Positions 870 through 46,215 of a stretch of 64,000 nt of DNA are shown piece after piece (within the stretch, counting starts at the first letter, position 1; each line of letters starts with the position of its first letter). Origin of the DNA: an uncultured Candidatus Saccharibacteria bacterium (lineage in GTDB: Bacteria > Patescibacteriota > CAZHWT01); assembly GCA_964597145.1 (NCBI GenBank), contig CAZQWH010000002.1, positions 49,232-113,231 on the forward strand, read 5' to 3'. The notes under the pieces were generated by a model. That model saw nothing but the letters and a program-made list of their open reading frames with translations, did no database searches and had not been told where the DNA came from. The translations under genes and the position numbers were made by a program.

Positions 870-1253
870 TCAGCTGGCAGCAATTCGTTGCTTTTTAATT
901 ATTTCAGCCTTCGCAATTTCTGCGTCTAATTCTACATCACTCAAATCGTCCAACGGGTCGTGCAGAGGAGTGGATTTGTGCATCCTATACATGCCTCTTA
1001 GCCTAAATGCCATATCCAAACCTTTTGCCCTAATGCTCATATTGTCTGAATCAACTAAGCCTCTTACTGATTTAATCAGTTCCTCCATTGGTAAAATCTC
1101 GGCACTCAATTCCTGCCACGCCTTACTTTGCAGTAGCTTTTGTGGATTGTGTGACATAGCATCAGAATACCCAGCTTCACGCATTGCAGCGCTCACATTT
1201 CCACCATTTTCAACCATTTTATTAAAAGCTAATAATTGTCGCTTGGTTGCCAT
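870..1253 (-). CDS. Phage terminase small subunit-like protein (Terminase_2/P27-type HTH)
   Basis: N-terminus 'MATKRQLLAFNKMVENGGNVSAAMREAGYSDAMSHNPQKLLQSKAW' fits the recalled TerS consensus (LTxKQxxF...N.T.A...AGYS...A...LL); no large terminase adjacent. Confidence 0.5.
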   Translation of the reverse strand: MATKRQLLAFNKMVENGGNVSAAMREAGYSDAMSHNPQKLLQSKAWQELSAEILPMEELIKSVRGLVDSDNMSIRAKGLDMAFRLRGMYRMHKSTPLHDPLDDLSDVELDAEIAKAEIIKKQRIAAS

Positions 1254-2427: not shown

Positions 2428-2826
2428 TTATAAAATACTAATCGTCTCAATCAAGCTCTGAGGACGAGATGTTAAATCTGTTTTAATCCATCTACCATAT
2501 GCGCTATTCTCCCTCAGTACTTTTTGTTCAGATTCCAGCGTGTAATCATCAAACCAAACAAAGGAAGTCTCGAAGTCGATCGCATCAGTCTTTAACACAT
2601 CCCAATTAGTCGGGTTAATGCGCTTAGTTAATTTAAGTACATCCTTATCTTTTATATACCTACCTAAGTACAATTCTAAATACTCTAGATTACCTCTACA
2701 ATGAGATGTAAGCCAGAAAACCTTATGATTGGCTAATATGTGTTCTAAAAATAACTTGAGGCCAGCTGCAGGCGCTCCTGTCTTTTTATCCAAAATGGTG
2801 CCGTCGATATCTATGTAAATATTCAT
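2428..2826 (-). CDS. HAD-superfamily phosphatase-like small protein
   Basis: N-terminal 'IYIDIDGTILD' (DxDGT motif I); 132 aa. Confidence 0.5.
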   Translation of the reverse strand: MNIYIDIDGTILDKKTGAPAAGLKLFLEHILANHKVFWLTSHCRGNLEYLELYLGRYIKDKDVLKLTKRINPTNWDVLKTDAIDFETSFVWFDDYTLESEQKVLRENSAYGRWIKTDLTSRPQSLIETISIL

Positions 2827-2849: not shown

Positions 2850-3221
2850 CTAACAGCCACGCGTACTCCTTCTGCTGTGATTGTCAGGACTACACCGCCA
2901 CTCCTGTTTTTGTATCTCAAGCTGCTCTTCCTGGATTTCTAATTCTTTTTGTCGATCAGCTTGTGCAGCCGCTTCTTGCTGGGGTAATTGATATCCAAAG
3001 TAATAGCCAGCTACTCCAATAAAGCATAGTAGAATTAGGGCGAGTAAAACTTTAACATCCTTCGATTTGCCTTTACCTGATTTCTTATCACCCGGTCTTA
3101 TGTGTGGACCTTCTAAAAGCGCTTTTTTGTGTTCAGCTAGCTCTTCATCACTTAGTACACCTTTTTCTTTTAGCTTCGCAAGTCTTTCTAATTCGTTCAA
3201 TGTTCGTTCATTCATAAGCAC
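2850..3221 (-). CDS. SHOCT-domain membrane protein
   Basis: 'LERLAKLKEKGVLSDEELAEHKKALL' matches the recalled SHOCT consensus; single TM helix 'VLLALILLCFIGVAGYYF' follows. Confidence 0.55.
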   Translation of the reverse strand: MLMNERTLNELERLAKLKEKGVLSDEELAEHKKALLEGPHIRPGDKKSGKGKSKDVKVLLALILLCFIGVAGYYFGYQLPQQEAAAQADRQKELEIQEEQLEIQKQEWRCSPDNHSRRSTRGC

Positions 3222-3258: not shown

Positions 3259-4119
3259 TTAACCATGCTCCTCATGGTATTTGACCAGCTCTAAATTGAT
3301 TGAATGACTGTCATGTAAAGTTAATCGGCCTACTTTTTTGCCTTCTATCCGATTTTGAACATTAAAATTTTGGTCGATATAAATTGCGCCAGTATCAAAA
3401 AGCACGTGGTGGTTAGGGCATAGGCACAGTAGATTTGATTCAATATCAGGGCCGTTGTGTGGAGCGCCTAACGGCTTTATATGGGCAGCTTCTGCGTACG
3501 GACCTGCGCTAGTTAATAGCCTTGTATCGCATACCTGACAAGTGTAATCGTACAATTCTTTTATTCTAGATGCAGTATTCGTATTTCGAACAATACGCTG
3601 AATAGTTGCCGACTTACGCTCTGTTGCATAATTTGCGCCCTCATCCTCAACTTCTCTCACTAATACAGGCTCTTCGCGGAGTAATCGGAATCTCCAGATA
3701 TTAAAACCGTCACGCCCCTTTTCATGCCAATACGACTCAACTCTATATAAGCCGTCATAACGATAGCCTGTGGTGGGGCTATGGGGAGATTTATGCTCCG
3801 AACCTCTAATCACTCGAACAGGCAGGCCATTTATGCAATTGAGTGCAAGCGCTTTGTTTTGATTAGTTAATTCTTGGTCTGCAATTTGAACGCCTGTATT
3901 TATGTCTCTACCCCCATGACCTGTATAAATCACTTCATCAAAATAATCTTCGTCATCTACATACCCACCTGATATCACCAATGAATCAGCACCCTCAGTA
4001 CTCGAACCGGAAATACCCGCCTGCAAAGGTCGATGGATGCCAGCATCATGCAGTTCACGCCTATTTGCAAACACATCACCAGATTTAATATTTTCAATTT
4101 CACCAAAATGTCTTGCCAT
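3259..4119 (-). CDS. SRA(YDG)-HNH type IV modification-dependent restriction endonuclease
   Basis: SRA blocks align with the UHRF1 SRA domain: 'GIHRPLQAGISG', 'SLVISGGYVDDEDYFDEVIYTGHGGRD', 'QELTNQNKALALNC', 'YRYDGLYRVESYWHEKGRDGFNIWRFRLLRE'. C-terminal HNH: 'CQVCD...HIKP...NLLCLCPNHH'. Confidence 0.85.
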   Translation of the reverse strand: MARHFGEIENIKSGDVFANRRELHDAGIHRPLQAGISGSSTEGADSLVISGGYVDDEDYFDEVIYTGHGGRDINTGVQIADQELTNQNKALALNCINGLPVRVIRGSEHKSPHSPTTGYRYDGLYRVESYWHEKGRDGFNIWRFRLLREEPVLVREVEDEGANYATERKSATIQRIVRNTNTASRIKELYDYTCQVCDTRLLTSAGPYAEAAHIKPLGAPHNGPDIESNLLCLCPNHHVLFDTGAIYIDQNFNVQNRIEGKKVGRLTLHDSHSINLELVKYHEEHG

Positions 4120-4198: not shown

Positions 4199-6574
4199 TT
4201 AATGCTCAAAATCAATTTTGCGCAATCGAAGCTCCTCTTCAACTCGCTGTCGCTCTGCGATTATAGCTTTATCTAGACTATCAAGTTCTAATCGTGCAAA
4301 CTCTCGTATGTTTTTGTTTTTACTATTACTAAAGTTGGCTTTAATATGGTCATACTTTGCCTGATGTGCATCAGCTACACCATACTCGCCTGAAACTACC
4401 CCTGTTGTAAATATTGATGCGCTAACTTTAGACCAAATCTTTTTATTTTTGGTACGAGCAATAATTGCAAATGCTGTTTCTAAATCTATTGATTCAAACG
4501 AGCTAGAGTAGAAGTTAGCAACTTTTAGAAGCCCGTCCTGATCGGCCTTTTTGACGAAGGAATTTAAATACTGTCTATGCACAGTCAATTGCTTAAGTAA
4601 TTGCGACATTTCAGAATTATACATTGTCCACTGAGTAGAAAATGATTTAATAACGTCAATAAAAACTTCACCAAATTCAGGGTCATTTTCACATATCTCG
4701 CGAGGCCCATCACCAATATGATATGGAACAGGGTCGTAATCTTCATTTTTGAGCCTAGTGGAATCTCTGAGCTTGATGCGCCTGGAGAAGAACTCTATTA
4801 ACCACCTACTCTTACCACTAGCAAGCTTTGTAATAATCCGCTCATGTTCATGTGAAAGGCGAGGAGTATTGATAAGCTTCTCTTCAAGAGTTTGTCTAAT
4901 TTCTTTACTCAATTTTTCTACATGTATTTCGTCTCGATGCTCAGCTATATCAATGGCATGGAAATATAAAGATGAGTGACTTTCATACATGTTAAGAAGG
5001 TCAATAAATAACTTGATTGCTTCATTATCATTGGGGTCTACGGTCAACCTTTTTCCCAGCACCTCTACCAACCCACTGATGTACGATGGCCAGGCCTCTT
5101 TGTCGATAAACTCAAAACGGCCAGACTTGTGTATCATCTCACTAACAACCAGCATTTCATCCTTTTCTACACTACCAAGTGATATTGCTTGAGGGATAGA
5201 AATAAGAGCTTCGCCAACCTTATGTTTAACTATAATTTCGAGAACGCCATTATATTCTTTTATTGCATCCGCTTTTTTAAACCCTATTAAAAATTTTCCT
5301 GCCATTTTTAAAAGCTCGGAACCATCCTGTGCTGCCTCAATAATTAGCTCCATGGCCAATCCAGGCTTTGCTTCCGCAAGCTCGATAAGTAGGGAATAAT
5401 ATGAGCTCAGCTTCCAACTCTCAATCTCTGTAGAGTGGCTAGCTATTTGCTTAATAATCTGCGCTCCATTATCTGACGTGTCTTGAATTTCCTCAATCAG
5501 ACTCGCACGTTCTAAACTCGATTCCTTCTGAATTTGCTCGTAGGGCTTCTTTGAAATATGACGCAACTTATCGCCTAATAACATTGAGTAAATCTGATAA
5601 TTTCTATCGCTACTTAAGCCCTTAGATATGCTATCCATCTTAAGCAAAATGTCTTCATCTTCGTGGTCTTTACCCATAAAATAAAGCTGCTCTTCAATCT
5701 CCAGTCCAAGTACTGGGTCACAAACAAAATCACCTTCACCCAATAAAGAGTCGCTATATATATCGAGAACTTTTTTAGTATTATTCTGGATTAACCCTAT
5801 TAATTCAGGAGATGCCTCGCCGCGACTAGGTATATGAGTTAATGTCTTCATTAAATCTATAATCCTGTTTTTTGTACTAAGGCTGGCATTATTAGATTTA
5901 AGTAACAAACCTAGCTTAGTTAATATCCACTCGCGAATCTCAACTAGCTCATCGTTAACAGGAAGTGGCGCAAATCCCCACACAAATGTATTCTCATCTT
6001 TCATCGAATGAGATTCACCCTCACTAGAAACGAGGTGACTTGTTAACTTTATAAAAAAATCTAAGTTACCATTATGGCTTAAGTCAAGCGTATCTAGATA
6101 TTTAATAATATCTAGTTGGGTTCTATATCCAATATGTGATAACGCCTCCAAATTATATTCGGCAGTTTCCCTAATTTTGTCCTCTAATTGCCTGCTTAGC
6201 GAATCGTCTTTCCTTTGAAAGAGTTTGTGGTAGATTGCAACTACTTTGGTGGTTTCATAATAGCGAATTTGATTAAGTAGCTGAATAGTTTTACTGTTTA
6301 AATCGCTATTACTTTTGCCGACAATTTTCCCAAACTTAGTGTTGCGAACAACAGGCGGCATAGGCTCGTTGTCCAGAAGCTCTCTTAGTAGCTCAACAGC
6401 TTCTCCAGGAACTTGAAGAACAAACTGTGACAATAAATTCAATTGCTCGAAAATTGTATCGTTGTTAGATGCTTCTTTAATAGTCTCTGCAATGGAATTA
6501 AATTTATCACCTAGCAAATTATTCGCTGAAGGCGATTGTAGGCTCATTAGTTTTCTATAAACGTCTCGCTTCAT
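4199..6574 (-). CDS. Large (791 aa) uncharacterised protein, predicted mostly alpha-helical; downstream partner of the Mrr-like nuclease gene
   Basis: Long uninterrupted ORF. Its start lies 3 nt after the stop of the upstream gene (translational coupling). No Walker or other catalytic motif recognised. Confidence 0.6.
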   Translation of the reverse strand: MKRDVYRKLMSLQSPSANNLLGDKFNSIAETIKEASNNDTIFEQLNLLSQFVLQVPGEAVELLRELLDNEPMPPVVRNTKFGKIVGKSNSDLNSKTIQLLNQIRYYETTKVVAIYHKLFQRKDDSLSRQLEDKIRETAEYNLEALSHIGYRTQLDIIKYLDTLDLSHNGNLDFFIKLTSHLVSSEGESHSMKDENTFVWGFAPLPVNDELVEIREWILTKLGLLLKSNNASLSTKNRIIDLMKTLTHIPSRGEASPELIGLIQNNTKKVLDIYSDSLLGEGDFVCDPVLGLEIEEQLYFMGKDHEDEDILLKMDSISKGLSSDRNYQIYSMLLGDKLRHISKKPYEQIQKESSLERASLIEEIQDTSDNGAQIIKQIASHSTEIESWKLSSYYSLLIELAEAKPGLAMELIIEAAQDGSELLKMAGKFLIGFKKADAIKEYNGVLEIIVKHKVGEALISIPQAISLGSVEKDEMLVVSEMIHKSGRFEFIDKEAWPSYISGLVEVLGKRLTVDPNDNEAIKLFIDLLNMYESHSSLYFHAIDIAEHRDEIHVEKLSKEIRQTLEEKLINTPRLSHEHERIITKLASGKSRWLIEFFSRRIKLRDSTRLKNEDYDPVPYHIGDGPREICENDPEFGEVFIDVIKSFSTQWTMYNSEMSQLLKQLTVHRQYLNSFVKKADQDGLLKVANFYSSSFESIDLETAFAIIARTKNKKIWSKVSASIFTTGVVSGEYGVADAHQAKYDHIKANFSNSKNKNIREFARLELDSLDKAIIAERQRVEEELRLRKIDFEH

Positions 6575-6577
6575 AAA

Positions 6578-7465
6578 CTAGCCTCCTTGAATTTGGCTAA
6601 TGACTTCTTCTAAATCTCGACCCATCGTCTCGATCATGTCAGTCGCTACTTCTTGAGCAATTTTAGGATTATTTGCAGTGATAATGTTGCCAGTAATATC
6701 TATACTGGCATTTGTCATCAACATACCATGAACCTTCAATTCGGCGTCCTCATCAATTTGGAATAAATCTCGAAGAACAGCTCTTACTTTATCGTGGTCA
6801 TCTAAATATAAGGGTTCAAATAAGTATACAAATGCATGATACCTACTTGCCAACTTGGGCCAGTCAATATATTGGGTCTTAAACTTCCGACTAATTCTTT
6901 GGAACTCGGGGGCCTGCCGAAATAATTCCCTCTCCTTGGCAGCTTGAGCAGCTTTTTGTTTTTCGAGTTGCACTCGCAGCTTGTCAATTTCTCGGGCATC
7001 GTAAACTTTCAGCAGCGGCTTAGAGATTTCAGGGTATGCGTCCACTAGGTGGGCTAGCTTTTCGAAATCCCAGTATTCAATTCTAGCCTTAGGATAATTG
7101 GCAATAATAGCGTTAACAGCCTCATGGTCCTTTTTAGTCCTACGCACGTTGGTTATATAAACGTATGAGCCTACGCCGTCTTTACCACACTTGGATTCAA
7201 GCCAGTCTTCAAACTCTTTGATAACCTCTCGTCGTTGTCTTGCCCCATCCCCTCCAGCTATCTCCCTGAATTTAAGCTGGTGATATTGAACACCAGCTTG
7301 AGAGCCTGGATAGCTAGAGTCAATACCCCCATCCTTTCCTTTTCTTGGTCCAGGAGTATACCCATCTCCGCCAAACTCTTTTCGTAAGAATTGGTGGCAC
7401 ATCCGGTCAAAATTATCTTGACCGAGCGAGTCGAACATGTAGTTATGGGGCGTAAATTCAAGCAT
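6578..7465 (-). CDS. Restriction-endonuclease-fold protein (Mrr_cat-like PD-(D/E)xK N-terminal domain) with a C-terminal domain of unknown function
   Basis: 'FDRMCHQFLRKEFGGDGYTPGPRKGKDGGIDSSYPGSQAGVQYHQLKF' resembles the Mrr catalytic core (FE..V..LL...G...DGGIDG...VQCK). Confidence 0.45.
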   Translation of the reverse strand: MLEFTPHNYMFDSLGQDNFDRMCHQFLRKEFGGDGYTPGPRKGKDGGIDSSYPGSQAGVQYHQLKFREIAGGDGARQRREVIKEFEDWLESKCGKDGVGSYVYITNVRRTKKDHEAVNAIIANYPKARIEYWDFEKLAHLVDAYPEISKPLLKVYDAREIDKLRVQLEKQKAAQAAKERELFRQAPEFQRISRKFKTQYIDWPKLASRYHAFVYLFEPLYLDDHDKVRAVLRDLFQIDEDAELKVHGMLMTNASIDITGNIITANNPKIAQEVATDMIETMGRDLEEVISQIQGG

Positions 7466-7564
7466 AGATGCAAATTATAGGTATAATTATATACTTACAC
7501 AGTGATACAGTTAAGGAGTATAGCATGCGGATAGCAATTTAATTTAAAATTATAAGTCTTTGTC

Positions 7565-8755
7565 TTGACTTCCGACACTATACTAGTTGTTATGAATTCT
7601 TTTGTGATATTGCCTTACGTGCTTGTAGCTGGACCATTCACCTTTAACGGCTGCACCTTCTTGCCTTTCGATAAGTTAAAAGAGGAGGTTGCCGACCAGG
7701 AAATTCGAAATTTGGCTGAGCAATTACGTAAAACTTATATTAAGTTCGATAATCGTACAGATGAGAATCTAACTTTTATTTACCCAGCTGAATCACACTT
7801 GGGCGATGAAATCGAATCAGAAAGGCTATCTCAGGTCATACAGACCATACAAGTGGCATTTCTGGGGTATTTCATTAACAATCACCAATGGCACTGGATT
7901 ACATCAGATAATTTTGAGCCAATCATGGTGAGATATGACGGTGAGCACATCTCCCTGCAAGGCGGCTCAATTCACCAAGTCTTATCAGGAGGGCATACAC
8001 TTGAAGGCGCTAAAACAATTCGGCCCAACTGGATTAATAATGTAGGCAAACTAGGACCAATTGGAATGAAAAAATATGCGGGTCCACTATTAGAGGCGGC
8101 GCTTCAGAATAATACCAGCAACGCAATCACCTCAATGCTGTTCTTTTTCGAAGCTTATAAAAACAATGACTCAATCCCTTTGGTAAATCGTCTTACAAAC
8201 CTCTACTTGGCATTTAACACACTTTTTAAAGTTCCAACTGGTAGTGGAAGCGAGCGAAAGGTTATCAAAGAACAACTCGTAAAGCACTCCGAACCAAGTT
8301 TGCCAACTTACAGTTATCCCATCATCAATACCAATAATGGCAGAGAAATAGCACGGGAAGAATTAACGGTTGTTCAAATCTGGTGGGAAGAATTCTATAA
8401 GCTTCGATGCCGCATTTTTCACGGTGACGCATTGCAGGAGGGTGACTTTTTATTTACTGATATTTCCGGCCAAAATATTTTCCCACGCCCGACTCTACAC
8501 TTACATTTTGCGAGCAATATTTATGCTGGTGTGCTATTTAATGTCCTTCGTAATTCAGCCGGTAATGCGGATTGTCCTTTACGGTACGAGCTTGGCCCTA
8601 CAACAGGCAGAGGAGATACCTTGAATCCGTCTGGACTAGGATTTGCTGACCGAAATTACATGCCACCATTTAAAGTCTTTGACCGCACTTTTGAAGAGGA
8701 ATTACGGATAACAATGGAGAAGCATGCCGTAAACAATGCTGATTCAGATAGCTAA
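7565..8755 (+). CDS. Hypothetical 396-aa protein with a HEPN-like Rx4H motif (possible Abi-type RNase)
   Basis: 'LRCRIFHGD' gives R-x4-H; no other recognisable domain; sits in the defence island. Confidence 0.3.
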   Translation: MTSDTILVVMNSFVILPYVLVAGPFTFNGCTFLPFDKLKEEVADQEIRNLAEQLRKTYIKFDNRTDENLTFIYPAESHLGDEIESERLSQVIQTIQVAFLGYFINNHQWHWITSDNFEPIMVRYDGEHISLQGGSIHQVLSGGHTLEGAKTIRPNWINNVGKLGPIGMKKYAGPLLEAALQNNTSNAITSMLFFFEAYKNNDSIPLVNRLTNLYLAFNTLFKVPTGSGSERKVIKEQLVKHSEPSLPTYSYPIINTNNGREIAREELTVVQIWWEEFYKLRCRIFHGDALQEGDFLFTDISGQNIFPRPTLHLHFASNIYAGVLFNVLRNSAGNADCPLRYELGPTTGRGDTLNPSGLGFADRNYMPPFKVFDRTFEEELRITMEKHAVNNADSDS

Positions 8756-9306: not shown

Positions 9307-10158
9307 ATGTATGAAAATTTTGATTGGCAGTTTTTATTACCCTATACCAAAGAGGCGACTCCTGAAAGCTTAAATCCTGTAACGGTTATACATGAGTTAG
9401 ATCAATTACCTAAAAGTATAGTTGAGGCTACAGGGAAAATACATAGCTCAACACCACTCTCTCAAGCCTTATGCAATTATGTGCTATTGCTTAATGCCGA
9501 AAAGGGTGATTTTATCCTAAAAATAGCTAGAGGAGCATATAGAGGCGCGCAGTTGCAGCATGAGTACGCTATAGGCAAATACTTGATTCATAATTCCCAA
9601 TTTCGCTTGCTTTCAAATCCCATAAATTTTTCTAAGGAGGGCGACTTTTATTATTTCCTACAGACTCGAATAAGCGGTAGTGTACTTAGTCCAAGTATTG
9701 ACCAAAATATATGCATTCAGCTGGCTAAGTCATTAAAGGAAATTCACTCATCGAGTTTAATTTATGAGAATTATGATGTAGTTCTCGAATATAATCTCGC
9801 TTTAGCTGAAGCAAATTTTCATAGCAAGCTTATCGATCTAGAGGAATTTATTGGCATAGGTGATCCTTCGACTGTGTTGTCATGGCTTCAGAGTCATCGG
9901 CCTTCTCATCACCCCTTAACTCTCATTCATGGCGATTTTCGACCGAAAAATACACTTTGGCAAGATTCTAAAATAGTCGGCATCATTGATTGGGCTTTTT
10001 CTTCCATAGGCGATCCCTACTACGATATAGCAATAATTCAGTTTTACCTCAAAACACAGCAGCTAAAGGATACCTTTTATATTGAATACGGTATCACTGA
10101 TTTAGATTGGGGAAGGCTTGACTACTATGACAAGTTGAGCAAATTCCTAAATGTTTAA
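9307..10158 (+). CDS. Aminoglycoside/choline-kinase-type phosphotransferase (APH fold)
   Basis: Brenner motif 'HGDFRPKN' and 'IIDWAFSSIGDPYYDIA' (DFG-like), nucleotide-binding-lobe features; flanked by identical 22-nt direct repeats. Confidence 0.7.
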   Translation: MYENFDWQFLLPYTKEATPESLNPVTVIHELDQLPKSIVEATGKIHSSTPLSQALCNYVLLLNAEKGDFILKIARGAYRGAQLQHEYAIGKYLIHNSQFRLLSNPINFSKEGDFYYFLQTRISGSVLSPSIDQNICIQLAKSLKEIHSSSLIYENYDVVLEYNLALAEANFHSKLIDLEEFIGIGDPSTVLSWLQSHRPSHHPLTLIHGDFRPKNTLWQDSKIVGIIDWAFSSIGDPYYDIAIIQFYLKTQQLKDTFYIEYGITDLDWGRLDYYDKLSKFLNV

Positions 10159-10637
10159 TGGCACAATTCTAGCCTTATATCATCCAACCACTCCAGCAGG
10201 TGTTCGAACCAAATGGCATCCGGCTCACCATAAATGGCTCAGATCATTTGATCTAGGCTATTTTTGTTGCGTCGCTAGCGAATCTCCCAGTTCATAGTAC
10301 TGTTCGCTTGGCAGGAGAGTACTATTTGCACAACGATACTAATTGTATGAATTACCAACTTGGCGGAGCCAACTCCCTCCCGGCTCACCAAAACATCTAA
10401 ACAGTGCGCCTCGGATCCATCCATCTATCTGAGGTAAAAAAGCTTTGTTACGTAACATGTTACGCAATAATAGGGTCTGGTGATATCTGTGAGGGGAGCA
10501 GGTGTCATATTTAACTCAACGTACATCCATAGGATCATGTAAATTAATTTTATTTGATATATAGCCTATAATATTATATAATCGTCACTATACATAACCG
10601 AGGTTCGCAAGCAAGTATCTACAAAGGAGACTGCAGA

Positions 10638-10976
10638 GTGGAAGCAATTCTCATAGTCCTTTGTGCATTGGTGGCTGTTATAGTTGCAGGGATAATCATC
10701 CTCAACCCGTTTGCTGCAATGCGCTTTCGGCAACGGTTTGTATATGTGGGCCCTGCCAAACCGCTTTCATATAGAACTGGTATGCAGGATAAGCAGCGAT
10801 GCTTCTGCACAGCACGTGGCACCACTCTGATTCTGTTCAAACCACTGATCGGCAGTAGTGTTATCGCCAACTATCAATCAACCGGCGACACTAACTGTCA
10901 GTCATGCACTGAGCATGAGGCGCTCCTCATCAAGAAGAGCGATCTCGCAAGTTGGCTGCACGCGAACGCCAGATAA
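10638..10976 (+). CDS. Small membrane-anchored hypothetical protein
   Basis: GTG start after RBS 'AAAGGAG'; N-terminal TM helix; strong terminator immediately downstream. An alternative minus-strand ORF overlaps it. Confidence 0.35.
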   Translation: MEAILIVLCALVAVIVAGIIILNPFAAMRFRQRFVYVGPAKPLSYRTGMQDKQRCFCTARGTTLILFKPLIGSSVIANYQSTGDTNCQSCTEHEALLIKKSDLASWLHANAR

Positions 10977-10993
10977 GCCTACTAGCAATACAA

Positions 10994-11036
10994 TGGCGCC
11001 CTACCACTCACCGAGGTCGACGGGCGCCAGTTTTAT
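10994..11036 (+). terminator. Rho-independent terminator
   Basis: GGCGCCC stem ... GGGCGCC followed by TTTTATT. Confidence 0.6.
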
Positions 11037-11178
11037 TCTCGACTTTTATCCCTAGTGTAAATAGGGGATAAACACCTGACAGGTGGAAAGATGTACATTA
11101 CGTCATTCGGATGGCACAATCGAACACTTTGCATTATTCATTATTAAATAGAGACAAAAATTACCGTTTCAAGCAGAA

Positions 11179-12291
11179 CTAATTATAGAACGACCAATTT
11201 TGCGTATTGATGACTGTCTTTCCAAGATACTTATTTAGTATATTCGCCAATTTCTCATAAAAATCATCGTCAAGATTTCCACTCAAAATTCGCTCTTTTA
11301 TGTGCTCCGGCACCGAAGCCATAAATCTTCCTAGTAACGCCTCTCTATATTTAGACGCTGAATATTTTTCACCATTCCGATCCTTAATGCTTTTTTCTGC
11401 AGCCACACCCATTCCTGGGGCTAGTTCGGTGGTAACAAAAGGCACCTTACTGTTAACAAAATCATCAGCATGTGCTTGGTATATTCGTTGAATCACCGAT
11501 AATGCTTTATCTGCCTGCTCGTCATCGGAGTACAATACAATTCGATCATCTCTATGTTTCGTGGCAAAATCGCCGGCTACCATCGAGGCCTCAGATACTT
11601 TAATTTGGACCGATAGGTCCTCCTCTACAATCGCCTCCATCACTTCTTCAAAAACCTGCTTAGCTGCAGCAGGGTGTGGATTAAGATAAATTCTTTTAGA
11701 CGGGTAATTGAACGTGCCATTTTCAATATTTTGCATGGCTTTTGGTGAAGTATACTCCGCAAAAACAAGTGAATTATCCGAACACGAGAATCCTGCTTGC
11801 TTATATTTGCTACGCAAGGATTTCAGATCTTGGTAATAGGCTTCGCGCAACTTCTCGCTATTTGAGTAAGGCTGCTCGTATTCATTGTCCAGATAAAAAT
11901 CGTAACTTAGGTTTATCTGGCCTCCATTTTTGCGATACGAATCCAGGAGTAGCTTTGTTTTTTCGGCGTCGAAATGGTTGGGTATTTGCATTGCCTGTTC
12001 AAAGGTGGTTGCCTTGAAAGTCTCAGCCTCTCTTTGTATTCGAACTTCCTTACTCCTTAGGGCATCCATATAAGCTGCGTGGTCGGGATATTTTTTAAGA
12101 ATAGCAGTATACGCTTGGAGCTCAGGATGACTTAGATCCTCCCACCCCGAACGATACATTTCTTGAATAACCTGGGCTTCGGGATCATCTTGCGTTGCAA
12201 AGCGATCAATAATTTCTTGCGGAGTTTCTGGATTAAATCCTGGCACTTCACTCATAAAAAGTATTGTACAGAAAAAACTTTCGCGATCCAA
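11179..12291 (-). CDS. Hypothetical protein (370 aa)
   Basis: Long ORF, acidic/helical; start ambiguous (TTG at 12291 with 'GGAAG' upstream, or ATG at 12255); no motif recognised. Confidence 0.45.
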   Translation of the reverse strand: MDRESFFCTILFMSEVPGFNPETPQEIIDRFATQDDPEAQVIQEMYRSGWEDLSHPELQAYTAILKKYPDHAAYMDALRSKEVRIQREAETFKATTFEQAMQIPNHFDAEKTKLLLDSYRKNGGQINLSYDFYLDNEYEQPYSNSEKLREAYYQDLKSLRSKYKQAGFSCSDNSLVFAEYTSPKAMQNIENGTFNYPSKRIYLNPHPAAAKQVFEEVMEAIVEEDLSVQIKVSEASMVAGDFATKHRDDRIVLYSDDEQADKALSVIQRIYQAHADDFVNSKVPFVTTELAPGMGVAAEKSIKDRNGEKYSASKYREALLGRFMASVPEHIKERILSGNLDDDFYEKLANILNKYLGKTVINTQNWSFYN

Positions 12292-12623
12292 CTATTACCC
12301 AGCTTCCATACTTTCATTAAAGTAAGGAATTTGGTTGTACAGAGGGGATACCCACTCCCGATATGGTAAAGTTCTAGTCATAACGCTAGTAGTTTTATCT
12401 GAGTTAAAATGACTTTGTTACGTAACACGTTACGTAACAATAGGCATAGTGGTATCTACAAGAGGGCACCTGTTAAGAGGTAAACGCCTGACAGGTGGCA
12501 GAGCTGATTACTCCATAGCCAACCACTCACCCTCAAAGTTGTTGTCGCACTACTTGCGCATAATATTTCAACTCCTCTGTATCATCTGATATAATTCCGC
12601 CACGTATCAAAGGAGTAGACAGT

Positions 12624-13022
12624 ATGCCAAAGACATTCGTCACCTGCGCCATTATTATTGACGACCAAGACCGCTATCTACTAATTAAACGTGCCCGAGA
12701 TCCCTATGCAGGATATTGGGCATGCATTAGTGGTATAGGCGCCTCAAGGAAAGGATTTCCGCCCGAGCAAGCAGTTATCAACGAAGTCAAACACGACATT
12801 AGAGCGGAGTTCCAGGGACATCTAGCCTTCAGCTACCCTTTACCAGAATCTAGGTTAGCCAGCACTGCCTATGTCTTTATTGGCCAAGTCAATCAAAGCC
12901 AGATCGCTCTTAATCCAAGAGCTGCTACAGACTATAGATGGTTCAGCCACCACGAATTAGAGCAAGAAGCATCATTGGCTTTCGAGGATAAGTGGATCCT
13001 TGAGCAAATCACCACAAGCTAG
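12624..13022 (+). CDS. NUDIX-like hydrolase (degenerate Nudix box)
   Basis: 'GYWACISGIGASRKGFPPEQAVINEVKHDIRAEF' is a degraded GX5EX7REUXEEXGU box; RBS 'AAAGGAG'. Confidence 0.45.
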   Translation: MPKTFVTCAIIIDDQDRYLLIKRARDPYAGYWACISGIGASRKGFPPEQAVINEVKHDIRAEFQGHLAFSYPLPESRLASTAYVFIGQVNQSQIALNPRAATDYRWFSHHELEQEASLAFEDKWILEQITTS

Positions 13023-13253
13023 CTCAACCACACCTCCTAGCAACCAAGACCAAAACCTACCTTTGGTCTTGGTTAATCCATGCCTCTTTTATGTCTGTAA
13101 ATTAATGGATTAGGTTATTATTCAATCACTCCAATAGGCATCCGATACTTTAGAGTCTAAATACATTAATCGAGCATTGCAATCATTGACTCGAGATGGC
13201 TCATCTCTTAAACAGTTATAATAGCCTATATTACACAGCCGAATGTATTATGT

Positions 13254-14198
13254 ATGAGAATAAAGATTAGACAAGAAGTATACGATGATTACTGGCGGTT
13301 TGCTGCCGAACGCCAGGAAATATTTTTTCGGCGTTTAGAGGGAGAACTGCCACCATATACATCTGATCCAATTTTGTCTCACTATAAATTTTGTAATACC
13401 TACCGGGCTAGCGACCGAGTGTCTCAGTTTTTAATTAAAGAAGTCATTTATAGCCAACAGCGCTCAGATGCCGACACGCTCTTTCGTATTTTTCTGTTTC
13501 GCCTGCTCAATAAAAACACAACCTGGATGGAACTAGAGAAGCGAATAGAGGAGATATCGCTGACAAAATTTAATACCGATCATTATGCATCAGCACTGGA
13601 GAATATAAGAAAAACACAACCCATTTACGGCAATGCGTTTATACTCTGCGCCAATAAGGCGTTTGGTTTTGACCAGAAGCATCGGAATCACTTAGCATTA
13701 CTTGAGCAAGTTTTTGTGAAAACCAATATTTCTAATGATTTATTGGGAGCCAAAAGTTTAAAGGATTTATTTAAAACCCTTCGATCACTACCATTAATTG
13801 GGGATTTTATGGCATACCAGATTGCCATTGATATGAACTATTCTGAGGTATTTAACTTCAACGAAAACGACTTTACAATTGCGGGCCCAGGAGCAATTCG
13901 TGGCATTAAAAAGTGTATCGAAGATCCCAACGGAACCACTACGGAAGAAATCATTAGCTATATGGTGGAACATCAAGATGAAGAATTTGCGCGCTTAGGG
14001 CTAACATTTAAAAATTTAGGCGGGAGAAAATTACACGCCATTGATTGCCAAGGCCTCTTTTGTGAAACGGACAAGTATTCGCGGGTAAAACACCCCGAGC
14101 TGAAAAGCAGCCGGTCTAAAATAAAATCGACCTTTAAGCCCCTGGCAAAGCCAATCGACTATATGTACCCGCCAAAGTGGAACATTAGACTTGGCTAA
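13254..14198 (+). CDS. Hypothetical protein (314 aa), function unknown
   Basis: Clean ORF; conserved-looking 'YKFCNTYRASDRVSQFL'; no family recognised. Confidence 0.45.
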   Translation: MRIKIRQEVYDDYWRFAAERQEIFFRRLEGELPPYTSDPILSHYKFCNTYRASDRVSQFLIKEVIYSQQRSDADTLFRIFLFRLLNKNTTWMELEKRIEEISLTKFNTDHYASALENIRKTQPIYGNAFILCANKAFGFDQKHRNHLALLEQVFVKTNISNDLLGAKSLKDLFKTLRSLPLIGDFMAYQIAIDMNYSEVFNFNENDFTIAGPGAIRGIKKCIEDPNGTTTEEIISYMVEHQDEEFARLGLTFKNLGGRKLHAIDCQGLFCETDKYSRVKHPELKSSRSKIKSTFKPLAKPIDYMYPPKWNIRLG

Positions 14199-44580: not shown

Positions 44581-46215
44581 TCAGGTCGGGAATGACAGGG
44601 GAGCGGTGTTTGTTAATTGAGGCGAATATGGTTTGATATTGGATCGATTGCTAGGACTACTTATATATCGTTTTAAGATTTTATATTGATCCAGATCGAA
44701 CTGAGGGATTATCGATTGGTGCTCAATTAACTGGTCATGTTGGATAATATGGCCAACCAAACACCAGTTATCAATAATATACCCATCACTTTGGCCTTGA
44801 TGGTCGCTTTCGGTAATAATAATCGGTGTCGCATATGGCCATTGTTTAATTCTGGTTGTGGCAAAAGCTTGGTTGAATCGCATTAAATACTCCAAGCTGG
44901 ATTCTTTTCCCACACACGCTCCATAGCAAACTTTGAGTTGATGAGGGAAACAGGCGCCAGAGGTTTTTTGGAGCCCTAATAATTTGTGACAAAGGTGATG
45001 CTCTTTGGCTAGAGCAACTAATGATTCTTTAGCCTGTCGCTCGGAGCGATAGACGGCCATAACTGCGTCCAGAGGGACGCAGGAGGTCGATGGTGGGAGG
45101 TTGGAAGGCGACTTGGATTTTAATTTGTCGTCATCCCGGAAGAAGTCTTGCGACTGATAGGATCTAGATTCTATCGCCTTTGGCTCTCTTCGATCCTGAG
45201 CCTCAGAGCCGAAGGCCAGAATGACATTTTCTATATTTATTTTTTCTGATTTCTGATTTGTTTCGATTTTAGGATTTAGAATTTCTGATTTGCGCTGCAA
45301 GGAGATTGTTGGATAGCCAGCCTCATCTTTGCCTTTAATCGCCACCATCATCTCGGTTTGGCATCGCAGCAGCCGGTTATGGATCGGCATTAGCTCCTTA
45401 ATTAAGCGTGATTCAGTAAGCAAGGCACCTAGTTCGCCGGTAGTAGATATGGTTTCAATATCCGTAATTTCCCGGGCAATCCGTTGCTCTTTGGGGGAGC
45501 GGTGGTCATCGCTAAAGTGAGATAAAACTCGATCACGGATACTCACACTTTTGCCGACATACAAGGGTGCATTAGTGGCAGAGCGAAAAATATAAACCCC
45601 CGGCGACTCAGGTAAGTCATTCACAATTCTCTGGGGCAGGTGAACCGGCAAAGATGGCTGACGTAGCTGTAATCGAACCTGCTGGTTAATAATTGCTTCG
45701 TCATGTTGTTCAACCATGCATTGCAAGGCTTTCCAAGTCGCTTCAGCATCAGCAAAAGCCCGGTGGCGTTCGAGTATAGGGATAGCAAAGCGTTCAATGA
45801 GGGCGTCTAGTTTATGGCTGCGATAGTGCGGGTAAAGTGCTCGGGACAACTTGACCGTGCAGAGCAGGCGAGGTTTAAACTGGTACCCAGCTCGCCCTAA
45901 TTCCTCTTTGATAAAGGCATAATCAAACCGGGCGTTGTGCGCCACAAAAATACAGCCTTCAAGTAAGTCGTACACATCCTGAGCCACCTCAGTAAAAGTA
46001 GGTGCGCCCGTTATATCATCATTAGAAATCCCAGTTAATTGGGTAATAAAGGCTGGGAGTGAGGTACCAGGATTAATTAATTGGCGCATAGTTTGCACCA
46101 CCTGCCCCTGCTCAATCCGTAAAATACCCACATCAATCACGCCGCCGTTTTTATACGACATCCCAGTAGTTTCGACATCAACAATAGCCAGCGGAGAATG
46201 GAACAGATTGGGCAT
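44581..46215 (-). CDS. DnaQ-like 3'-5' exonuclease (DEDDh) fused to GIY-YIG nuclease domain (Cho/UvrC-homologue-like)
   Basis: Exo motifs 'VDVETTG', 'HNARFD', 'HRAFADA'; GIY-YIG 'GVYIFRS...LYVGKSVSIRDRVLSHF'. A ~75-aa low-complexity insert is encoded by repeat DNA at ~45060..45300. Confidence 0.85.
   Translation of the reverse strand: MPNLFHSPLAIVDVETTGMSYKNGGVIDVGILRIEQGQVVQTMRQLINPGTSLPAFITQLTGISNDDITGAPTFTEVAQDVYDLLEGCIFVAHNARFDYAFIKEELGRAGYQFKPRLLCTVKLSRALYPHYRSHKLDALIERFAIPILERHRAFADAEATWKALQCMVEQHDEAIINQQVRLQLRQPSLPVHLPQRIVNDLPESPGVYIFRSATNAPLYVGKSVSIRDRVLSHFSDDHRSPKEQRIAREITDIETISTTGELGALLTESRLIKELMPIHNRLLRCQTEMMVAIKGKDEAGYPTISLQRKSEILNPKIETNQKSEKINIENVILAFGSEAQDRREPKAIESRSYQSQDFFRDDDKLKSKSPSNLPPSTSCVPLDAVMAVYRSERQAKESLVALAKEHHLCHKLLGLQKTSGACFPHQLKVCYGACVGKESSLEYLMRFNQAFATTRIKQWPYATPIIITESDHQGQSDGYIIDNWCLVGHIIQHDQLIEHQSIIPQFDLDQYKILKRYISSPSNRSNIKPYSPQLTNTAPLSFPT

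Follow-up and report, generated by a model that had tools for sequence, protein, structure and literature searches.

What is the function of two tightly coupled genes, one for a putative nuclease and one for a large protein without recognizable catalytic motifs, in the genome of an uncultured Candidatus Saccharibacteria bacterium? The genes, here called A and B, lie on the minus strand of a 64,000-nucleotide (nt) stretch of contig CAZQWH010000002.1 (the window), and their open reading frames (ORFs), of 295 and 791 amino acids (aa), are present as the initial annotation, made from the DNA letters alone, had placed them (Table 1). That annotation proposed that the pair is a novel defence system in which a nuclease effector works with a large sensor. 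Our analysis favours this reading: judging from comparative evidence, we put the probability at about 0.6 that the two proteins are the subunits of an immune module of the sensor-plus-effector, abortive-infection type, directed against phages or mobile elements. The sensor-plus-effector part of the proposal is strengthened by gene fusions, by head swapping, by a dedicated adaptor domain and by the restriction genes and mobile elements to which the loci are linked; the defence function is what we infer from them.

The partnership of A and B carries most of this argument. In all 12 close-family contexts, a gene of ~290 aa stands directly upstream of B, with a gap of 2-3 nt or an overlap of 4 nt, and the flanks are wholly different. 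A scan of GTDB at one genome per species (185,579 species genomes), based on the B signature TGVVSGEYG, identifies 56 loci. Among the 35 loci with a B of ~800 aa, 34 have a coupled upstream gene at distances of −26 to +7 nt, and the remaining one ends at a contig end; in the 11 loci with a B of ~1000 aa, the partner is fused N-terminally and the coupled upstream gene is absent in all. The adjacency recurs in each independent context examined and goes beyond chance; a pair not conserved as neighbours would have undone the initial annotation, and the pair is conserved. Translational coupling, claimed at the outset, is borne out by the 3-nt intergenic gap in the window (junction CAA GGA GGC TAG ttt ATG), by the Shine-Dalgarno site of B inside gene A, and by the short distances in 34 of 34 evaluable loci.

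The partner of B is constant in position and variable in kind. Among the best 150 of the 888 superfamily representatives, to which the detailed architecture analysis was applied, about half are ~800 aa long and 67 carry an N-terminal extension of >120 aa. These extensions include a RelA_SpoT-type cluster of 35 (Pfam RelA_SpoT was confirmed on the two members scanned), a DUF4365 PD-(D/E)xK nuclease in 26, TIR_2 in 2, and a Mrr-like head followed by NB-ARC in one (P0104). The separate upstream partners bear a PIN_12 head at 23 loci, HNH at 3, DUF4365 at 3, the Mrr-like head of the window type at 2 and no assigned family at 4; in Proteobacteria, PIN_12 is the head most often paired with B. Every assigned head is predicted to be a toxic or effector domain found in known defence systems. 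One B clade (52-70 % identity) bears HNH, DUF4365, Mrr-like and fused RelA_SpoT heads as well as one unassigned head; for instance, the B proteins of an HNH locus (L014) and a DUF4365 locus (L015) are 70 % identical, and that of a fused RelA_SpoT locus (L017) is 63 % identical to the B of L015. Head exchange between B modules therefore appears, from these identities, to be recent.

The C-terminal tails of the partners behave differently from the heads. They fall into far fewer clusters, and one tail cluster unites the window A with partners that have HNH, DUF4365 and unassigned heads (hhalign comparison of its tail with theirs: probability 99.4 %, E 4e-21). The tail is conserved whatever the head type and tracks the B clades, and it is detected between the head and the B module in three fused proteins (P0089, P0096 and P0104). 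The head of P0104 matches the nuclease of A, an NB-ARC domain is inserted between its head and B, and its B module is placed where STAND/NLR proteins bear their ligand-sensing repeats. The family is a three-part unit, consisting of a variable toxic head, an adaptor tail and a constant HEAT solenoid, which occurs as a single chain or split after the tail.

The head of A has the αβββαβ core fold of restriction endonucleases in its AlphaFold2 (AF2) model, with the catalytic D … (E/Q)xK motif on β2/β3. Across 14 members of the family, down to the L016/L028 relatives and to ~25-30 % identity, there is no variation at D45, G47, D49, Q63, K65 and T105-N106. The Mrr-like nuclease proposed for A is thus backed by the fold and the invariant D…QxK motif. 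No Pfam family matches A at E ≤ 0.1, Mrr_cat included, and NCBIfam and PHROGs likewise give no match; because the Pfam Mrr_cat model is unmatched, assignment to the Mrr-type PD-(D/E)xK nucleases (Mrr_cat or MspJI-AspBHI type) is supported, by model and alignment, at the level of fold and motif only. The nuclease is probably active, because GKDGGID49 … Q63-x-K65 and TN105-106 are invariant. In PADLOC, A residues 8-151 weakly match the first 138 of the 752 positions (model 3-138) of PDC-S73, with an E value of 3e-4. The tail of A, residues 184-295, would dock physically on B; by itself it gives nothing significant against PDB sequences.

B is modelled as a HEAT-like α-solenoid. The AF2 model is confident (predicted local distance difference test score (pLDDT) 86.1, predicted template modelling score 0.68) and has ~40 helices and two β-hairpins. 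B has no match in Pfam, NCBIfam, PHROGs or PADLOC and no Walker A motif, which agrees with its first description as a large partner without catalytic signatures. It also has no specific solved relative. PDB sequence searches with single-family profiles and with a 39-member superfamily profile gave nothing significant. HEAT solenoids are protein-binding surfaces, and B has several conserved loops. In the tip of the second β-hairpin, E185, G186, E187, H189, M191, K192, D193, E194 and T196 are invariant within the close family, and T196 is 82 % conserved across the superfamily. Among the 150 superfamily representatives, R599 is conserved in 100 %, the nearby Y613 in 96 % and P617 in 99 %, and, in the signature loop, G725 in 97 %, G729 in 100 %, E730 in 85 % and G732 in 97 %. 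The window B carries all the signature loops (R599, YDxIPY(H) and TGVVSGEYG), whose conservation in these representatives is 85-100 %. Its termini, MKRDIYKKLMNLQSSEA… and …EELRLRKIDFEH, are invariant yet poorly ordered. These termini, together with R599 and the loops EGESHxMKDENT, YDxIPYH and TGVVSGEYG, are candidate interfaces.

The close family is small and the superfamily large. A word-indexed search of 5.8 billion proteins finds 10 clusters of close relatives for B and 12 for A, all full length, with A lengths of 286-304 aa throughout. An exhaustive hidden Markov model (HMM) search extends the B superfamily to 888 representatives, clustered at 50 % identity, at E ≤ 1e-3, of which 310 remain at ≤ 1e-30. 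The GTDB scan gives no relative with close-family patterns; the 56 signature-bearing loci belong to Patescibacteria, Gamma-, Beta- and Alphaproteobacteria, Nitrospirae, Anaerolineae, Bacteroidota and one Micrarchaeota archaeon, and the proteobacterial hosts include cultured Pseudomonas graminis, Cupriavidus pauculus, Variovorax, Pelomonas, Undibacterium, Massilia and Lysobacter. The distribution of the B family is patchy and rare. The archaeal member, from a Candidatus Micrarchaeota metagenome-assembled genome (L032; JACRGB010000005.1), is a 948-aa fusion of a RelA_SpoT-type head and B; as this organism is a DPANN archaeon, the B family spans the boundary between bacteria and archaea. A phage-encoded origin of B was considered and rejected, because neither a scan of viral contigs in IMG/VR nor a tblastn search of GenBank phages gave any B relative.

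How might such a module work? In the favoured reading, B would be the recognition and regulatory scaffold and A the killing subunit, whose Mrr-type DNase head is joined through the helical linker to a ~110-aa adaptor that docks on B. In the resting complex, B would keep the nuclease of A inactive through the tail. The trigger bound by B would most likely be a phage-derived protein, as with other solenoid sensors, or else a perturbation caused by infection. Its binding could lead to conformational release or oligomerization of the complex, so that the nuclease heads are brought together, DNA is cut and the infection is aborted. All of this is predicted from sequence comparison: that the tail docks on B, that the complex is autoinhibited, what the trigger is, that induced proximity activates the heads, and the defence phenotype as such. 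Activation by release or induced oligomerization fits nucleases, TIR domains and toxic small alarmone synthetases (toxSAS) alike. Because the heads that B serves are chemically unrelated, and because B co-varies with the tail and not with the head, it cannot be an inhibitor specific to one head; it is a shared platform for regulation or recognition. B is proposed as the sensor because P0104 places it at the ligand-sensing position of STAND/NLR proteins and because the HEAT region of DSR2 binds phage proteins, namely the tail tube and DSAD1 (PMC11263360). A bolder version, which we hold only tentatively, is that the B solenoid represents a new class of immune receptor, independent of NTPases and present in Patescibacteria, Proteobacteria and DPANN, into which effectors plug in cis or in trans through the ~110-aa adaptor, and which in some loci acts as a restriction guard.

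Several known systems resemble the pair in part. DSR2 consists of an N-terminal effector head, a small helical or helix-turn-helix connector and a long helical/HEAT C-terminal region that controls the head (PMC11263360). The head-connector-HEAT layout is shared, by analogy only, by A plus B and by the fused relatives, which at ~1000 aa are close in length to DSR2 (1005 aa). The head of A, however, is a PD-(D/E)xK nuclease on a separate polypeptide, whereas that of DSR2 is a SIR2 NADase, and no homology of the DSR2 sensor region to B was found. DSR2 is not known to exchange many heads through a dedicated adaptor. Avs and other STAND proteins (for example, Avs4) differ in that A and B have no NTPase or Walker A, P0104 being the sole relative with NB-ARC, and in that the B sensor is a new HEAT-like solenoid in place of the TPR repeats of Avs. 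The whole CapRel protein is ~370 aa long. CapRel(SJ46) is described as a toxSAS toxin fused to a sensing C-terminus (10.64898/2026.04.06.716658). The cluster of 35 among the best 150 B relatives is similar in having a RelA_SpoT-type head fused to a C-terminal regulatory or sensor region, but the small C-terminal domain of CapRel is unrelated to B, and the window pair uses a predicted DNase, not a toxSAS.

Short prokaryotic Argonaute (pAgo) systems such as SPARDA and SPARTA also set interchangeable DUF4365, Mrr, HNH, TIR and SIR2 heads on a constant sensor-binding module; DUF4365 in SPARDA is a validated collateral DNase (PMC10810196), and the PADLOC Aga_REase and TIR-PNTD models match the heads, and the heads only, of B partners. 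In contrast, there is no APAZ and no Ago among the neighbours of B, and the putative sensor is a solenoid protein where the pAgo systems have a guide-loaded Ago. PDC-S73, a single-gene candidate in PADLOC, resembles the A head over its first ~138 positions, but its remaining ~610 positions match neither the A tail nor B, so that the match does not extend along the 752-position model; we found no paper in the open-access literature that mentions it. Cosus (Brc24), a single-gene integron defence with a PIN_12 domain as its anti-phage effector (10.1101/2024.07.02.601719), is one small protein without a B partner and has no direct bearing on the Mrr-type A of the window. Type II toxin-antitoxin (TA) systems are unlike the pair in view of the 791-aa B, the at least seven unrelated heads attached through a common adaptor, and the stable fusions. 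PANGU (NAP sensors) was compared as well and is not related to the pair. Neither A nor B matches the marker HMMs of Hachiman, Gabija, Lamassu, Kiwa, Druantia, Zorya, Shedu, Upx or other systems in PADLOC v2, and solved defence proteins show no sequence or fold match to the pair. The pair is set apart from DSR2, Avs and short pAgo because SIR2, STAND NTPase, Ago/APAZ and the marker HMMs were looked for and are absent from it. The view that this is not a known system therefore stands: B falls outside every PADLOC v2 model, the one match of A is to the head region of PDC-S73, and the architecture was not found in the open-access literature, where a very recent description is possible; RefSeq labels the protein 'hypothetical protein'. 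The window pair has the two marks of the family proposed here, namely the B signature loops and an effector with a C-terminal adaptor tail directly upstream, and is apparently an undescribed sensor family with its adaptor, working within a familiar sensor-effector logic and belonging to none of the systems compared.

The genomic setting suggests other explanations. The pair may be a second-line guard of restriction: it would monitor a neighbouring restriction enzyme and fire when a phage anti-restriction protein inactivates it, with B binding the enzyme or the phage inhibitor. The analogy is the anticodon nuclease PrrC, which EcoprrI keeps latent until the Stp peptide of T4 sets it off. In the near clade the pairs are co-oriented with, and directly downstream of, restriction genes, often with overlapping stop and start codons (L012-L015, L021 and L022), and in the window a type IV gene closely follows B, with no terminator-like site between them in a terminator scan. 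The near-clade loci that join restriction-modification (RM) or helicase genes to the pair may be larger composite systems. Yet B is conserved while the restriction enzymes beside it belong to unrelated types (IIG/L, III and IV), an adjacent restriction gene is absent from most loci (among them the PIN_12 clade, L001, L004-L006 and L008), and the clustering of defence genes in islands is enough to explain the adjacency, so that a guard role appears unlikely. Quite unlikely, too, is an addiction or TA-like module, in which A is a toxin, B a very large antitoxin or inhibitor, and stabilization of mobile elements the main role. Such a module would account for the tight coupling of a toxin-like gene to its partner, for PIN, RelA_SpoT and HNH heads, which are also typical TA toxins, and for the occurrence of pairs on integrative and conjugative elements, plasmids and recombinase-bounded islands. 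Loci L001-3, for example, lie in an integrative and conjugative element with a type IV secretion system (T4SS) and a serine recombinase, and L008 lies by a recombinase; a Legionella adelaidensis plasmid has an integrase island that ends with a 'PIN domain-containing protein' and a 'hypothetical protein', a Rhizobium rhizogenes plasmid has a 1310-aa fusion whose neighbours are insertion sequence elements, a VapC TA pair and a SIR2 family protein, and a Sphingobium plasmid has a RelA/SpoT-B fusion. Against it, an 800-aa solenoid far exceeds any neutralizing antitoxin in size, and one B serves at least seven unrelated head types through a common adaptor, which leaves no room for active-site-specific inhibition; stable single-chain fusions are incompatible with a labile-antitoxin mechanism, a STAND NTPase stands between head and B in P0104, and several loci are chromosomal amid housekeeping genes.

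The head repertoire (HNH, PIN, REase-fold, RelA_SpoT and TIR) also overlaps that of inter-bacterial polymorphic toxins, and L001 adjoins a T4SS, which would suit variable heads delivered to competitors with B as a trafficking or loading scaffold. This is very improbable: the toxin domains are N-terminal here and C-terminal in polymorphic toxins, no immunity gene co-varies with the head (downstream genes are absent or mutually unrelated), the loci share no conserved secretion-system marker or signal, and the family is present in tiny-genome Patescibacteria and an archaeon. HEAT scaffolds are frequent in housekeeping complexes, and some loci have housekeeping neighbours; a B scaffold for DNA repair or RNA processing, for example, with a nuclease recruited incidentally, is nevertheless hardly credible, in view of the very patchy occurrence (only 56 signature-bearing loci among the species genomes scanned), different flanks at each locus, carriage on mobile elements, rapid effector exchange, TIR and toxSAS-type heads that have no repair role, and the lack of core-genome conservation within any lineage. 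B is thus neither a housekeeping protein nor, as no PADLOC v2 model covers it, an assigned defence component, either of which would have undone the initial annotation.

Some observations weigh against the immune module that we favour. The fold of the A tail is poorly predicted (pLDDT < 50 in AF2), and no fold is assigned to it because that model is of low confidence. The comparison of the A tail with the tails of PIN_12 partners reaches an hhalign E of 0.003 and a probability of 11 %, so that their homology, with a shared D-x-TGN motif, is only suggestive. The apparent enrichment beside defence genes is pronounced in the near clade alone, and an RM neighbour is missing from most PIN loci of Proteobacteria. 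Loci L004-6 are chromosomal, among housekeeping genes. The flank survey (128 ORFs from 32 loci) consists of raw counts without a genomic background: the commonest families are Eco57I, N6_Mtase and MmeI_Mtase with 5 ORFs each, followed by ResIII and TaqI_C with 3 each, and UvrD helicase, N6_N4_Mtase, SNF2, PLDc_2, Peptidase_M78 and LexA/S24 were seen twice each. Finally, promoter-like sites in the region, in a consensus scan, are no more numerous than expected from shuffled sequence.

If the immune reading is true, the family would be a sizeable addition to the bacterial immune catalogue, with 888 clusters in bacteria and at least one archaeon, and among the few systems native to Patescibacteria (the candidate phyla radiation), whose defence repertoire is poorly known. 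It would also constitute a natural experiment in modular immunity, in which one sensor scaffold and one adaptor serve at least seven effector chemistries, among them DNases, RNase-type PIN, toxSAS, TIR NADase and STAND NTPase, with repeated transitions between split and fused forms. The adaptor-sensor interface and the trigger would be directly testable, and the conserved adaptor might find use as a docking tag that can be moved between proteins. That operons repeatedly join the pair to restriction genes of MmeI type and type III also suggests a testable layered-defence or guard relationship.

Individual loci show further arrangements. In L024:7010-10319 the split point is different: B, here 871 aa long, bears the adaptor tail at its N-terminus, and a gene of 230 aa without an assigned type stands on its own 1 nt upstream. 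In L070 (Rhizobium rhizogenes pC6.5d, NZ_MK318989.1 61234-65166), a 1310-aa 'poly-gamma-glutamate hydrolase family protein' contains the B module, which suggests a further, peptidase-like head type. L054:2742-5123 (Lysobacter sp. Root690) encodes, ~0.3 kb ahead of a PIN_12-B pair, a 793-aa protein whose N-terminus resembles the Mrr-like head of A (E 1.5e-3) and which may itself be a single-gene candidate similar to PDC-S73. In L020:3765-7310, a 1181-aa protein with a central NUDIX domain is co-oriented 25 nt upstream of an HNH-tail and B pair. Genes of 225-281 aa lie within 3 nt of the B stop, or overlap it, in L006:10355-11200, L017:10347-11033, L018:10431-11108 and L025:3379-4134; a conserved third gene was rejected, as the genes downstream of B are not homologous to one another.

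Table 1. Positions of the gene pair, its domains and motifs, its neighbours in the window, and restriction-linked relatives at other loci
Feature	Position	Strand	Remarks
Gene A	6578..7465	−	295-aa ORF; putative effector subunit made up of a nuclease head, a helical linker and an adaptor tail
A, Mrr-type PD-(D/E)xK nuclease domain	7001..7465	−	residues 1-155
A, catalytic motif GKDGGIDS … Q63-L-K65	7271..7339	−	GKDGGIDS at aa 43-50; invariant in 14 sequences
A, long helical linker	6917..6997	−	residues ~157-183; AF2 helix H157-183; charged, low-complexity in alignment
A, adaptor tail	6581..6916	−	residues ~184-295 (~110 aa); strongly conserved; putative docking module for B
A, DITGNII motif	6680-6700	−	in adaptor tail
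Gene B	4199..6574	−	791-aa ORF; HEAT/ARM-like α-solenoid with two β-hairpins; putative sensor/scaffold
B, motif EGESHSMKDENT	5987..6022	−	aa 185-196; tip of second β-hairpin
B, motif YDPVPYH	4718..4738	−	aa 613-619
B, motif TGVVSGEYG	4379..4405	−	aa 724-732; superfamily signature loop
GGAGG Shine-Dalgarno for B	6582..6586	−	within last two sense codons of A; read from sequence
Promoter-like TTAACT-17-TATAAT	7486..7514	−	upstream of A; 10/12 consensus matches; weak evidence
P-loop protein, 392 aa	1247..2425	+	weak nSTAND3/AAA_16 matches under gathering scores
HAD	2428..2826		TIGR01484 E 0.02; weakly supported
SHOCT	2850..3221		E 6e-5, under gathering score; weakly supported
SRA-HNH type IV restriction enzyme	3259..4119	−	SAD_SRA E 5e-49, HNH_2 E 1e-11; 79 nt downstream of B
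396-aa ORFan	7565..8755	+	divergent from A; RCRIFH (R-x4-H) motif; known from same-strain contigs only
APH-family kinase	9307..10158	+	in low-GC island
HopA1-domain protein	11179..12291	−	in low-GC island
NUDIX hydrolase	12624..13022	+	in low-GC island
Protein with HMUDK_hel domain of 5-hydroxymethyl-dU DNA kinases	13254..14198	+	in low-GC island
MmeI/Eco57I-type RM and T5orf172-ResIII helicase	L012:468-5135
MmeI-like gene	L013:141-2801		overlaps partner start
PLD-SNF2 helicase gene and MmeI-like gene	L014:985-7330		4-nt overlap
Type III Mod+Res	L015:3277-7069		12-nt gap
MmeI-like gene; SNF2 helicase carrying Y1_Tnp domain	L021:77-6929
MmeI-like gene	L022:4178-7042

The window pair itself lies in an island of low GC content, from position 1 to ~14000 (0.37-0.44, versus 0.45-0.51 elsewhere). 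A longer same-strain contig (L009:14410-17225) extends past the left edge of the window and carries, 0.05-2.9 kb beyond it, a helix-turn-helix gene and a large serine recombinase of 521 aa; the whole low-GC region is probably an integrated mobile element. A consensus scan of the minus strand finds no terminator-like site from the pair to the HAD-like gene, its matches being not above shuffled expectation. Among the neighbours named initially, the SRA-HNH enzyme is firmly identified by both of its domains and the SHOCT and HAD labels receive weak matches; the 'HEPN-like' label of the ORFan beside A is not confirmed, as the protein has the RCRIFH motif yet no match in Pfam, NCBIfam, PHROGs, PADLOC or PDB sequences, and the 'TerS-like' label of 870..1253 likewise found no match. 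The P-loop protein could be another defence-type NTPase of the island. The four annotated genes from 9307 to 14198 may be nucleotide or DNA-hypermodification cargo or a further conflict module, and the island edge has two ORFs of 229 aa, which are not related to each other. Outside the island, and unrelated to the pair, the minus strand at 44581..46215 encodes a 544-aa fusion of a DnaQ-type DEDD 3'-5' exonuclease and a GIY-YIG/Cho-like excinuclease (NF005906 6e-77; Cho 5e-56).

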